Of a stretch of 64,000 nucleotides of DNA, positions 21,034 to 43,213 are shown in pieces; the first letter of the stretch is position 1, and each line of letters starts with the position of its first letter. The position numbers and the translations under genes were made by a program. The stretch covers positions 710,877 through 774,876 of the forward strand of contig JAQWMR010000016.1 in assembly GCA_029246685.1 (NCBI GenBank), in the 5' to 3' direction. The DNA is from Acidimicrobiales bacterium (lineage in GTDB: Bacteria > Actinomycetota > Acidimicrobiia > Acidimicrobiales > Aldehydirespiratoraceae). Below the pieces are notes generated by a model. It made no database searches and was not told the DNA's origin. It was given only the letters and a program-made list of their open reading frames with translations.

Positions 21034-21056
21034 ATCTGAGATCTCACGTCTAAGAT
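21034..21056. promoter_or_regulatory. Two adjacent copies of the ATCT-N-AGAT box (ATCTGAGAT 21034-21042; GTCTAAGAT 21048-21056) upstream of the ALDH gene
   Basis: Read directly. Lies in the 91-nt gap between the TenA-like gene and the ALDH gene; A/T-rich in GC-rich DNA. Confidence 0.55.
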
Positions 21057-21089
21057 TTAAGAGTAGCTCGACCGCTGGGATCGTGCCTG

Positions 21090-21767
21090 CTAGTCGTCTG
21101 GCCACTGCTCGAATGTGTAAGCCATGTTCCAGAAGGCGCTCTCATAGCGAGCCCCGGCGAGGAATCGTCGCTCGAGACGGGCCGCTTCGGTGTTCGTCAC
21201 CTCGCCGATGATCCCGTCGAACTCCGCGAGAAGAGAATCGACATACTCGATGTAGTCCTCATCGCCAAAGAACGACAGCCATTCGGAGTAGACGGGGTGG
21301 GGGGCACAATTCTGGTGGCGCGTCGCCATGTCTCCATAGCTCCATGCGCACGGCAGCATCGCCGCCATTGTCTCGGCGCTGCTGCCGGTGGCTGCGACCG
21401 CGAGGAGATAATTCGTGTAGGCAAAGCAGGTCGGCGATGGTTCCACCGACCCCGACTGGTCCTCCGCTCCGAGAGCGACGATGCGATCGAGCAGCCGACG
21501 GTTCGTCTCGATCTCGACATCAACGATCTGATGAACCGAACGGGCAAAGCGGGTGACTTCGGCCGGACTGTTCGAACGGGCCAGCCCGAAACCGAGCACC
21601 TTCGCGTACTGAGGGAGGTAGAAGAGATTTTGTTCCACGTAGAAACGGAACTTCTCGACCGAAAGACTCCCGTCTGCCATCTCTGTGACAAACGGATTCG
21701 AGATCAGGGCATCCCAGGTGGGTTGGCTCGAGGCCCGTAGCCGCTCCGTCAAGCTGGTACTCATCAC
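21090..21767 (-). CDS. TenA/thiaminase-II / haem-oxygenase-like fold protein
   Basis: 225 aa. NPFVTEMADGSLSVEKFRFYVEQNLFYLPQYAKV and the C-terminal ESAFWNMAY fit the TenA/PqqC family. Confidence 0.75.
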   Translation of the reverse strand: MMSTSLTERLRASSQPTWDALISNPFVTEMADGSLSVEKFRFYVEQNLFYLPQYAKVLGFGLARSNSPAEVTRFARSVHQIVDVEIETNRRLLDRIVALGAEDQSGSVEPSPTCFAYTNYLLAVAATGSSAETMAAMLPCAWSYGDMATRHQNCAPHPVYSEWLSFFGDEDYIEYVDSLLAEFDGIIGEVTNTEAARLERRFLAGARYESAFWNMAYTFEQWPDD

Positions 21768-21789
21768 TGTCTTCCCCGTCGCATCATCT

Positions 21790-22872
21790 CTAGTCGAACA
21801 TGATCACGCTGCGGGCGGCTTCGCCCTTCTTCAGCGCCTCCATCGCTTCGCCGACCCGGTCCAACTCGATTCGCTCCGTGATCAAGGAATCAAGATCGAG
21901 TCGACCGTCAAAATAGAAGTCCACGAACCGAGGCGCGTCGATTCGGAACTGATTGCTTCCCATGCAGGATCCCTGGATCCGCTTCTCGGCCAAGAAATCG
22001 ACTCCCGGAAGTTCGACGGTCTCGCCCAGAGCGATCATGCCGATGATTGTCGCGGTGCCACCAGCCCGCAGCATTCCGAAGGCCTGTGACGGGGTCGTCG
22101 CTCGCCCGATCGCGTCGAACGCGTGGTGAACTCCGCCGGACGTGAGCTCGAGGACTATTTCGACCGGATCGACATCTGATGCGTCGATCGCGTCGGTTGC
22201 GCCCATGAATTTCGCCAATTCCAACTTCGACGCCACCACATCGATCGCGATGATCCGACCTGCCCCGGCGATTCGAGCCCCTTGGATCGCGCTGAGGCCC
22301 ACACCGCCACAACCGATGACCGCCACGGTCTCGCCCGGAGCGACCGCCGCAGTACGAAACACCGCGCCGAGCCCGGTGGTCACCGCGCAGCCGACCAGCG
22401 CGGCCCGATCGAGCGGCATCTCCGGGTTCACCTTCACCAACGCGTGCTCGTGCACCAACAACTGCTCGGCGAACGAGGAGACGTCGGCGTATTGGTGGAC
22501 AGTCTCGCCGTCCTGGGAAAGGCGCGGCGGCGCGCCGGCTGGCCGCATCGTGTCCTCGTGGGGGCACAACGCCATTCGGCCGCTGAGGCAGTACTCGCAA
22601 TGGCCACAGAACACCGACAGCGAGCTGATGACATGGTCGCCTGGCGAGACATACGAGACGGCCTCGCCGACCGCTTCGACCACGCCGGCCGACTCATGGC
22701 CCATGACTGTTGGGATCAGTGTGTCGTAGGCGCCGGTCAGATAGTGGAGGTCGCTGTGGCACACGCCAGCCGCAACAGTTCTCACCAACACCTCGCGCGG
22801 TCCTGGGTTGTCGATCTGGACGTCTTCGATCGTGAGTTCTCCAGGAATGGAGCGCAACACTGCGGCCTTCAT
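21790..22872 (-). CDS. Zinc-dependent alcohol dehydrogenase (MDR family)
   Basis: 360 aa; GVCHSDLH, GHESAGVVEAVG, CGHCEYC structural zinc site, VIGCGGVGLS Rossmann. Confidence 0.9.
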   Translation of the reverse strand: MKAAVLRSIPGELTIEDVQIDNPGPREVLVRTVAAGVCHSDLHYLTGAYDTLIPTVMGHESAGVVEAVGEAVSYVSPGDHVISSLSVFCGHCEYCLSGRMALCPHEDTMRPAGAPPRLSQDGETVHQYADVSSFAEQLLVHEHALVKVNPEMPLDRAALVGCAVTTGLGAVFRTAAVAPGETVAVIGCGGVGLSAIQGARIAGAGRIIAIDVVASKLELAKFMGATDAIDASDVDPVEIVLELTSGGVHHAFDAIGRATTPSQAFGMLRAGGTATIIGMIALGETVELPGVDFLAEKRIQGSCMGSNQFRIDAPRFVDFYFDGRLDLDSLITERIELDRVGEAMEALKKGEAARSVIMFD

Positions 22873-42392: not shown

Positions 42393-42451
42393 GTCAGCTC
42401 CTCAAGAATTGCCGGGGTTACTCAGCGCCCGCGCCGGACGGCCTCGCCGAA

Positions 42452-43150
42452 CTAGGCAGGTAGCGCGGTCTGATCACTTTCGCCCTGATCGCGTGTCGCG
42501 AGATAGAGGTCGAGGACCCGAACGAGGTGAGCGGAGAGCAGAGATTCGGCGGCATTAGCGTCTCGGGCCGCGATCGCCTCTGCGATCTGCGCATGCTCCA
42601 GTGACGAATCCTCGATGCTCTCCGACCTCGATCCCGACAGCGCTCGGATTCGCATCAAGGGACCCTGAAGCGAGCGAAACGACATCACCATGCGGCGGTT
42701 TCCGGAGAGCCCGACGAGATACTCATGGAACAGCCCGATGTCGCGTAACGCCGACCGGTGTTCTGCGTCCGCTCCATCGACGCTCGCTACCCTCGCGAGC
42801 TCACCGAGATGGTTCAGTTCATCCTGCGTCGCGCGCTCACATGCCATGCGGGCCGCAGCCACCTCGAGCACGACCCGCAACTCGATCACATCGCGGGCAT
42901 CGTCGGGGTCAACCAGCGACACGAAAGTGCCCTTGAACGGAACGGTCTCGACCATGCCCTCCGCCTCGAGACGAGTCAGCGCCGCTCGGACCGGTGTTTT
43001 CGACACGCCGAGCTGCTCGACAAGCATATTTTCGGAGATCGCTTGCCCGGGGGCGAGTTGTAGGCTGGTGATCGCCGCACGAAGGACGTCGTAGGCCGCG
43101 TCCTTCAAATGCACCGACTTGATCGGTTCCAACCCTGGCACTGCTACCAT
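42452..43150 (-). CDS. GntR-family transcriptional regulator, FadR/FCD subfamily
   Basis: 232 aa; winged HTH (ENMLVEQLGVSKTPVRAALTRLEAEGMVE) and an FCD-type all-helical C-terminal domain. Confidence 0.9.
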   Translation of the reverse strand: MVAVPGLEPIKSVHLKDAAYDVLRAAITSLQLAPGQAISENMLVEQLGVSKTPVRAALTRLEAEGMVETVPFKGTFVSLVDPDDARDVIELRVVLEVAAARMACERATQDELNHLGELARVASVDGADAEHRSALRDIGLFHEYLVGLSGNRRMVMSFRSLQGPLMRIRALSGSRSESIEDSSLEHAQIAEAIAARDANAAESLLSAHLVRVLDLYLATRDQGESDQTALPA

Positions 43151-43197
43151 CGGAACGCCCCTATCTCTAGTCTCATCGCCAAGTTTCTCGTCACCAT

Positions 43198-43213
43198 ACC
43201 TTAGATATCAGAC
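43198..43213. promoter_or_regulatory. Degenerate copy of the box (ACCTTAGATATCAGAC) upstream of the GntR gene
   Basis: Read directly. Matches ATCT-N-AGAT-NN-CAGAC except at its second position (C for T). Lies 48-63 nt upstream of the GntR ATG. Confidence 0.45.

Follow-up and report, generated by a model that had tools for sequence, protein, structure and literature searches.

In a 64,000-nucleotide stretch of contig JAQWMR010000016.1 from an Acidimicrobiales bacterium (hereafter the window), a short palindromic element built of phased 7-bp units (heptads) stands 30-95 bp upstream of the start codon of all seven transcription units located between 19.5 and 43.2 kb. The copies of the element are grouped in six sites, named S1 to S6 (Table 1), and the collected observations provide good support for a new regulon with a variant GntR operator. 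In particular, we consider it probable, on the strength of the sequence comparisons described below, that the six sites are the operators of a GntR protein of the FCD type (FadR subfamily), encoded within the cluster itself (42452-43150). This regulator most likely switches a nutrient-breakdown cluster of 23 kb on and off.

An initial annotation of this DNA, read by eye, had noticed an A/T-rich box, ATCT-N-AGAT(-NN-CAGAC), in the promoter gaps of the block and had listed five perfect copies of its core. Exactly these copies of ATCTNAGAT, and no others, are present in the window, with starts at 21034, 25654, 25751, 29958 and 40795, all of them between 21 and 41 kb. Dinucleotide-preserving shuffling gives a mean chance expectation of 0.41 copies, and five copies were reached in none of 100 shuffles. 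One-mismatch matches in the window are not enriched as a class (14 vs 12.6 expected); those found at 21048, 25661, 25744 and 43198 touch or resemble the perfect copies, and they include the two weaker copies, at 21048 and 43198, that had been reported. Finer details of that reading could be reproduced as well. Specifically, the perfect 19-bp palindrome CCAAGATCTCAGATCTTGG around 25654 occupies positions 25649-25667, the second, overlapping TCTGAGA noted near 25751 corresponds to a duplication of this heptamer within 25745-25758, and S4 matches S5, read as its reverse complement, at 17 of 18 positions (85% over 26 nt). Moreover, Tandem Repeats Finder independently reports 25745-25760 as a 7-bp tandem repeat.

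The box described in the initial annotation is real, but it constitutes only the core of a larger element. The complete element is an array, 17-38 bp long, of 2-5 phased 7-bp units with the sequence T-S-A-K-A-T-M, the 9-bp box being the junction between two such units and the '-NN-CAGAC' tail simply the next heptad. The unit is nearly self-complementary, and a pair of adjoining units extended by three bases therefore gives a 17-bp palindrome of consensus TGAGATCT-N-AGATCTCA, and in longer arrays these palindromes overlap. Scores around strong sites recur only at 7-bp offsets. In front of the orthologues of the M20 deacylase gene, arrays of 17, 24, 31 and 38 bp are found in 9, 22, 20 and 2 loci, respectively. 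Some heptads read TGGTATC, and S4, in its minus-strand register, is CGATGTC TGGTATC TTAGATG CTG. In the consensus T-S-A-K-A-T-M-T-N-A-K-A-T-M-T-S-A there is no symmetric GT/AC pair. Two other origins of the element were ruled out: Dam methylation (GATC) or a BglII site, because many orthologous sites are ATATCT or GATATC and not AGATCT, and the ends of mobile elements, because the arrays are so short, lack flanking structure and hold conserved positions across families.

To scan the window, a weight matrix was used whose training set consisted of distant genomes only (loci L013-L080). All 13 matches of at least 10 bits fall within the six gaps named by the initial annotation, that is, in the regions of S1 to S6 and nowhere else in the window; matches of at least 14 bits are 9, vs 0.45 expected. 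Genes were assigned with Pfam and NCBIfam, and their starts were set where homology begins, which places the start of the M20 gene at GTG 30031, that of unkA at ATG 25642 and that of unkC at 25804 or 25819. In the layout corrected in this way all sites are intergenic, except S5. This site overlaps the last ~13 codons, which are not conserved, of an amidohydrolase open reading frame (ORF), and represents the sole coding overlap. The list of transcription units bearing a copy, as given by the initial annotation, is correct.

Further evidence comes from other genomes. Relatives of the central M20 protein were searched in one genome per species, which returned 80 loci with 10-kb flanks (single loci are cited below as L005 and the like). 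They belong mostly to Actinomycetota: Acidimicrobiia, including metagenome-assembled genomes from sponges, Pseudonocardia, Amycolatopsis, Nocardioides, Demequina, Streptosporangiaceae, Trebonia, Dactylosporangium and Mycobacteriales. The recurrent core order is M20, NicX-like protein, B12-binding subunit, mutase, coenzyme A (CoA)-transferase, M20, luciferase-like (LLM) oxidoreductase, glyoxalase, GntR, TenA, alcohol dehydrogenase (ADH) and aldehyde dehydrogenase (ALDH), and in L005 and L007 the layout is identical to that of the window. An unbiased count of 8-mers in the 220 bp preceding the M20 orthologues returned AGATCTCA as the top word, present in 23 of 67 loci. Sites scoring 18 bits or more occur in the 330 bp surrounding the start of M20 in 46 of 77 loci, vs 2.8% of random windows, and the loci devoid of a site at this position usually have one before an upstream gene of the same operon. 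As for the site clusters of at least 15 bits, only 3 of 127 lie in DNA covered by protein homology, which accounts for 43% of the bases, and 124 lie outside it; the genes with their 5' ends towards the non-coding ones encode M20 and transporter proteins, ALDH, amidohydrolase, ADH, glyoxalase, GntR and TenA. The positions orthologous to S6, S5, S4 and S2/S3 are occupied in L005, L007 and L081-L086, at 53-62% GC, and the element-bearing Actinomycetota as a whole range from 53 to 74% GC. Likewise, the closest relatives of the GntR protein, 65, 63 and 57% identical, are encoded on contigs with a GC content of 0.62 to 0.53 that carry orthologous sites. Matrix enrichment and conservation together bring the observation far beyond chance and indicate that the element is under selection. 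In other words, the single regulon of about 23 kb that had been suggested finds support, as dozens of genomes, both related and distant, have the same element at orthologous positions in their promoters; the search upstream of orthologous clusters, which the initial annotation had recommended, did find the box in related genomes. A different arrangement was observed in the marine relative L083 (6030-6060), and also in L084 and L085, where a strong double site of ~22 bits lies between the convergent 3' ends of an amidohydrolase gene and an ATP-binding cassette (ABC) ATPase gene, a non-promoter position. This double site could be a roadblock, or one of the genes could be miscalled.

The position of the arrays with respect to the promoters is informative. 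In the window, promoters were predicted by a consensus promoter scan, independently of the motif, and S2 and S4 overlap core elements of the predicted promoters (Table 1). The TTGACA/-10 arrangement of the M20-mutase promoter recurs in L005, L007 and many other loci. In general, the sequence TTGACN is present at most 45 bp upstream of the operators preceding M20 in 33 of 53 cases, vs 2.5% of random windows. This -35 hexamer mostly starts 15-23 bp ahead of the array, so that the arrays begin 9-17 bp past the hexamer, and one of the heptads reads as a -10 hexamer (for example TAAGAT, TATAAG or TAATAT). Consequently, the array covers the -10 box and the predicted start site, a location that would fit the classical placement of a repressor excluding RNA polymerase. 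A different explanation of the same geometry is that the conserved sequence is itself a promoter element, namely an unusual -10/discriminator read by a dedicated sigma factor, since one of the heptads falls on a -10-like hexamer properly spaced from TTGACA and a protein with sigma-70 region 2 is encoded at 16201-17865. Nevertheless, we judge this explanation very improbable: the -35 is a standard TTGACA, the element is palindromic and its repeats continue in 7-bp phase well beyond the -10 box, the A at the second position needed for TANNNT is found in only about one fifth of the heptads, and the site changes position between the -35 and the start codon.

A scan of metagenomes for the exact 17-mer TGAGATCTNAGATCTCA returned at least 120 stretches, 80 of which were listed. 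Most of the 80 listed stretches have 50-57% GC and no cluster homologues, and long tandem arrays of the same heptad occur among them, such as 7.6 copies of AGATCTC. Protein matches specific for the cluster (TenA, ALDH) were obtained among them only for L114 and for L163, which is possibly cluster-like, and L154 matched the ABC ATPase only. On contigs from soil, with about 50-57% GC and no homologue of the GntR cluster, arrays of AGATCTC, AGATTTG or TGAGATC (L161:1-60, L130:1256-1800, L113:2378-4701 and L135:3364-3430) reach up to ~8 copies, with several arrays per contig, and look like an unrelated and abundant family of heptanucleotide repeats. As the exact 17-mer resides, among the matches listed, mostly in unrelated contigs, its sequence alone is not diagnostic, and its meaning comes from position and conservation. 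These long metagenomic arrays, on contigs of 50-57% GC that lack cluster genes, would favor the idea that the boxes belong to a generic short tandem repeat of heptanucleotides and play no regulatory role. This idea is hardly credible, however, given that the arrays of Actinomycetota are short, hold, across families, a fixed position relative to the -35 and to the start codons of orthologous genes, avoid coding DNA and are absent from the rest of the window.

The candidate regulator possesses a GntR winged helix-turn-helix (HTH) domain (PF00392, E = 6e-18, residues 16-77) followed by an FCD domain (PF07729, E = 2e-21, residues 87-209), and its closest PDB entries are FCD-type GntR proteins. An FCD-GntR is encoded in nearly all motif-carrying clusters and is the sole regulator conserved there. 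Within 700 bp upstream of the GntR gene a site is present in 26 of 65 cases, vs 7% of random windows, and the remaining GntR genes are distal members of operons headed by a site. In the window, a putative operator is found at every unit, including the promoter of the regulator itself, and is conserved in orthologous clusters, as befits a local regulon with an autoregulated repressor. The initial annotation had tentatively proposed the same protein, and this proposal is strengthened by its being the only conserved regulator and by the retention of its own site, S6, in L081 and L082. On the other side, eight loci of Acidimicrobiia (L001, L003, L004, L006, L008, L009, L011 and L012; Candidatus Aldehydirespirator and relatives) have neither the motif nor the GntR gene. 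They maintain a reduced core composed of NicX-like protein, M20, B12 subunit, mutase, CoA-transferase and LLM, which would consequently be otherwise controlled or constitutive.

The initial annotation had also expressed the doubt that the box lacks the GT-N-AC half-sites associated with the FadR subfamily, and this doubt was justified. The contact between an Arg of the recognition helix and a G is the conserved base-specific interaction of the family, and G/C is avoided as the contacted base when HTH position 40 is a Pro (PMC4494728). The cluster-linked proteins depart from this scheme, since 65 of the 66 sequences share without variation the recognition helix G-V-S-K-T-P-(V/I/L)-R, which has a Lys in place of the G-contacting Arg45 of FadR (HTH position 38), a Pro aligned with Thr47 and no conserved Arg at the Arg35 position. 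The residue numbers of the FadR sequence used as reference agree with the published contact table (PMC4494728). In other FCD proteins of the PDB, the position of the Lys is occupied by Arg (7u5q, 7xp0, 6z74) or Phe (TM0439). Replacement of the Arg by Lys, combined with Pro at the next specificity position, offers an explanation for an operator with no canonical GT...AC. An invariant atypical helix paired with a conserved atypical operator is what would be expected if the GntR protein binds the site. The only exception to the helix signature (SRSP) is a second GntR copy of L033 (3200-3817), encoded ~6 kb upstream of the M20 gene; the GntR gene in the usual place of that locus (18196) is separate from it and follows the glyoxalase gene. 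Conservation is higher in the HTH than in the FCD domain (51% vs 34%), which is expected in any regulator family and is thus not evidence. No simple link emerged between the motif variant (AGATCT or ATATCT) and overall GntR similarity.

Several points weigh against the assignment of the six sites to the GntR protein of the cluster. The assignment rests on co-localisation, and four motif-bearing loci (L023, L063, L069 and L071) have no GntR gene within 10 kb. The joint loss of motif and GntR in the eight loci mentioned above is probably a single evolutionary event. In addition, the heptad consensus does not conform to the subfamily operator NyGTM-N0-1-KACNy or TKGT...ACMA, and S4, S5 and S6 of the window score just 13-16 bits. 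Moreover, binding in the manner of FadR does not allow full occupancy of two 17-bp palindromes at once when they are spaced by 7 bp and, among the metagenomic matches listed, the palindrome is abundant in unrelated contigs. A possibility is, then, that the element is a genuine operator bound by a regulator encoded elsewhere, such as a global one for nitrogen or carbon, or the response regulator of the LuxR type encoded at 44259-44822, while the cluster GntR reads something else. Besides the loci devoid of GntR and the departure from the usual FadR-subfamily consensus, this possibility could appeal to the location of the response regulator just to the right of the block and to the direct-repeat-like heptads, which suit response regulators. 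We hold it to be unlikely. In fact, no other regulator family recurs in the clusters (in the motif loci with no GntR, no other conserved regulator was found, and a lone TetR is present in L069 only), and the response regulator is not conserved beside GntR in L081-L086. Furthermore, the motif and GntR were lost together, the GntR gene has its own conserved site, and the invariant atypical recognition helix matches an equally invariant and atypical motif.

If the cluster GntR is the binder, its mechanism of action can be outlined as follows. A GntR dimer would bind one 17-bp palindrome, and the further heptads would serve as overlapping or cooperative binding positions. The bound repressor would cover the -10 box and the start site, thereby blocking RNA polymerase at all seven units, its own included. 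Binding of a pathway metabolite to the FCD domain would then release the repressor and induce the 23-kb cluster.

Table 1. Element sites, predicted promoters, proposed regulator and transcription units of the cluster, in window coordinates.
Feature	Position	Strand	Description
S1, putative operator array	21030..21060		Four heptads AGATATC TGAGATC TCACGTC TAAGATT TAA; scores of 21.3, 16.4 and 14.3 bits, offset by +7; 32-62 bp ahead of the ALDH gene, whose start codon is at 20998 (minus strand)
S2, putative operator array	25649..25673		Contains CCAAGATCTCAGATCTTGG; 19.1 and 18.7 bits; overlaps the -10 box and the start site predicted for the unkA-unkB-creatininase-ADH-TenA operon (minus strand)
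S3, putative operator array	25740..25763		TATCGTC TGAGATC TGAGATC CTG; 12.6 and 19.9 bits; period 7 in Tandem Repeats Finder; 41-56 bp ahead of the NicX-like gene, which probably starts at 25804 or 25819 (plus strand)
S4, putative operator array	29954..29977		Middle of the ADH2/M20 divergent gap; 13.6 and 13.8 bits; contains the predicted -10 hexamer TAAGAT of the M20-mutase operon; orthologous site in L005, L007 and L083
S5, putative operator array	40784..40807		11.6 and 16.3 bits; 41-64 bp ahead of the gene for the thiamine-type solute-binding protein, which starts at 40743 (minus strand); orthologous site in L081, L082, L005 and L007
S6, putative operator array	43194..43217		Putative autoregulatory site; 16.1 and 14.3 bits; 44-67 bp ahead of the GntR gene, whose start codon is at 43150 (minus strand); L081 and L082 have an orthologous site in which TCTAAGGTA is conserved
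Predicted sigma-70-type promoter, M20-mutase operon	29939..29966	+	-35 TTGACA 29939-29944, 16-nt spacer, -10 TAAGAT 29961-29966 inside S4
Predicted promoter, unkA operon	25668..25696	-	-35 TTGCCA 25696-25691, 17-nt spacer, -10 TAAAAT 25673-25668 inside S2
FCD-type (FadR subfamily) GntR, proposed operator binder	42452..43150	-	Recognition helix GVSKTPVRAA
Unit 1	19523..20998	-	ALDH
Unit 2	21090..25642	-	Ferritin-like/DUF455-like unkA, unknown unkB, creatininase-family amidohydrolase, Zn-ADH, TenA thiaminase II
Unit 3	about 25804..28766	+	NicX-like protein (2,5-dihydroxypyridine dioxygenase-like) and alkylsulfatase
Unit 4	28773..29882	-	Zn-dependent ADH, divergent from the M20 operon
Unit 5	30031..36535	+	M20 deacylase, B12-binding subunit, acyl-CoA mutase large subunit, family III CoA-transferase, second M20, F420-type LLM oxidoreductase
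Unit 6	36544..40743	-	Thiamine-type solute-binding protein, fused permease, ABC ATPase, methylmalonyl-CoA-epimerase-like glyoxalase
Unit 7	40767..43150	-	GntR and deaminase-type amidohydrolase (40767..42392)

The proposed system can be compared with regulators described in other bacteria. The GntR protein shares the winged helix and FCD architecture of FadR, LldR, PdhR, DgoR and GlcC. As in the FadR subfamily, a 17-bp, A/T-rich and odd-centred palindrome lies over the promoter, and a local catabolic cluster would be under the control of the regulator, which seems to be autoregulated. The window also matches the arrangement described for this subfamily, with a single site halfway along a divergent gap and double sites near each of the genes (PMC4494728). 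The differences concern both partners: the operator has no TKGT/ACMA boxes and is made of 7-bp phased units, usually 3-4, and the regulator has Lys instead of Arg45 and no conserved Arg at the Arg35 position. Known exceptions to the subfamily consensus TKGT...ACMA are NanR, which recognizes TGGTATAW repeats, and BioR (PMC4494728). For the repeated units, the nearest functional analogue is E. coli NanR, an FCD-type repressor acting on closely spaced short repeats, (GGTATA)3, which are bound by three dimers with a cooperativity that needs a 32-residue N-terminal extension (PMC8012715). Its multi-dimer operator is a precedent for arrays of 3-5 units, and the heptad TGGTATC resembles the TGGTATAW of NanR. 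As in operators of the NanR type, with at least two close copies of the unit, 2-5 heptads are present here, in strict 7-bp phase. However, the NanR units are asymmetric direct repeats, whereas those of the cluster are largely self-complementary and exactly 7 bp apart, and the N-terminal extension of about 32 residues is missing, the HTH domain starting at residue 16. Direct repeats of the heptamer TGGTATT have been reported for NagQ, a member of the HutC subfamily (PMC4494728). The similarity of TGGTAT(T/C) to the units found here is a resemblance from the literature only, and NagQ differs in having a UTRA instead of an FCD effector domain and in controlling an amino-sugar regulon. A local autoregulated GntR repressor with a heptad-phased palindromic operator devoid of GT/AC would be filed as a variant within a known type.

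The gene content of the cluster suggests the degradation of an N-heterocycle similar to the pyrimidine of thiamine, with carbon flowing via methylmalonyl-CoA to succinyl-CoA. TenA scores above the thiaminase II equivalog cutoff (TIGR04306, 157 bits vs 130) and the solute-binding protein above the thiamine-type cutoff (TIGR01254, 220 bits vs 93); scores above these curated cutoffs support, but do not prove, a thiamine-like ligand. The marine relative L083 uses an NMT1/ThiY-type binding protein instead of the thiamine-type one. The NicX-like protein weakly matches 2,5-dihydroxypyridine dioxygenase (7cn3, E = 7e-6; PF26233 on orthologues), the M20 protein encoded by the first gene of the operon is an ArgE/DapE-type hydrolase, the amidohydrolase is of the cytosine/guanine/triazine-deaminase type, and the epimerase-like glyoxalase sits with the CoA-transferase and the B12 mutase. 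In the proposed route, the substrate would be taken up by the thiamine-type ABC system and processed by TenA, by alcohol and aldehyde dehydrogenases, by ring cleavage through the NicX-like enzyme, by deaminases and M20 amidases, by an F420-dependent reductase and, finally, by CoA-transferase, epimerase and B12 mutase.

Base-degraded thiamine is salvaged by means of the ThiXYZ transporter, the M20 deformylase YlmB and TenA, usually under the control of a thiamine pyrophosphate (TPP) riboswitch. The cluster has in common with this pathway a TenA thiaminase II, a binding protein of the thiamine or NMT1/ThiY type and an M20 protein of the ArgE/DapE family. In contrast with it, the cluster has no TPP riboswitch and would be controlled by a protein repressor; indeed, a scan of the window at the Rfam gathering thresholds returned no TPP riboswitch (RF00059) or other known RNA element, and two tRNAs only. 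The further enzymes of the cluster, namely dehydrogenases, NicX-like enzyme, deaminases, CoA-transferase, epimerase and B12 mutase, are indicative of breakdown and not of salvage. It is conceivable, though we propose it only tentatively and with some doubt, that an undescribed pathway, widespread in Actinomycetota, breaks down the pyrimidine of thiamine or a related N-heterocycle to succinyl-CoA, and that it is induced by a thiamine breakdown product via a non-canonical GntR (Lys for Arg, phased heptads, maybe several dimers). No published account of the motif or of the pathway was found in the literature searched, whose coverage was incomplete.

With these findings, a large, conserved and functionally unassigned cluster would gain an operator open to testing and a candidate regulator. 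Its carriers include cultured Pseudonocardia, Nocardioides, Amycolatopsis, Demequina and Trebonia, in addition to sponge-associated Acidimicrobiia; among the cultured ones are Pseudonocardia thermophila DSM 43832 (L029), Nocardioides soli DSM 105498 (L068), Demequina salsinemoris NBRC 105323 (L043) and Trebonia kvetii (L058). In any carrier genome, the motif can serve to mark the limits of the regulon and as a basis for inducer screens capable of revealing the substrate. Moreover, the GntR family gains an orthologous group with many members, in which the change from Arg to Lys in the recognition helix accompanies the loss of GT/AC and a heptad-phased operator. If the substrate is indeed a thiamine fragment, this would represent a first genetic handle on the catabolism of vitamin B1.

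Other features of the cluster and its surroundings deserve mention. In about 30 loci (L030-L047, L054, L059, L061, L065, L066, L070, L073 and L076) a TenA-family gene directly follows the GntR gene, for example at L033:18196-19612, often with a weak site in between. A TenA-family protein, LysR2, has recently been shown to act as an anti-repressor of a PadR repressor (PMC12817078), and the TenA paralogues beside GntR may be either enzymes or modulators of GntR. The deaminase-type amidohydrolase gene of unit 7 is probably co-transcribed with the GntR gene from S6, and the adjacency of the two genes is kept in L081 and L082. The ORFs of the glyoxalase (36544-37194, minus strand), of LLM (35456-36535, plus strand) and of the B12 subunit (31131-31652, plus strand) have long N-terminal extensions with no homology. 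Homology begins near residue 86, 27 and 32, respectively, so that the true starts should lie further downstream.

The alkylsulfatase gene (26862-28766) shares a transcript with the NicX-like gene, and a fragment of a sulfatase domain lies just left of the block (18967-19611); both look specific to the window, as they are not part of the conserved cluster of other genomes. The block is flanked by the genes for the sigma-70 region 2 protein and the LuxR-type response regulator already mentioned, both on the minus strand, neither of which is conserved beside the cluster in related loci. At the right edge of the block, 530 bp past the last operator, lies a tRNA-Arg gene (CCT; 43748-43820, plus strand). 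The GC content between 12 and 44 kb is also slightly lower, 0.59-0.65 vs 0.66-0.69 in the flanks, and the cluster could be an acquired island. A plasmid origin was discarded, as a megablast search of 20-44 kb against PLSDB returned no match. Finally, an 18-bp tandem repeat of 3.7 copies (40579-40643) encodes a linker with three DDPVET units, located after the lipoprotein-like signal of the solute-binding protein.

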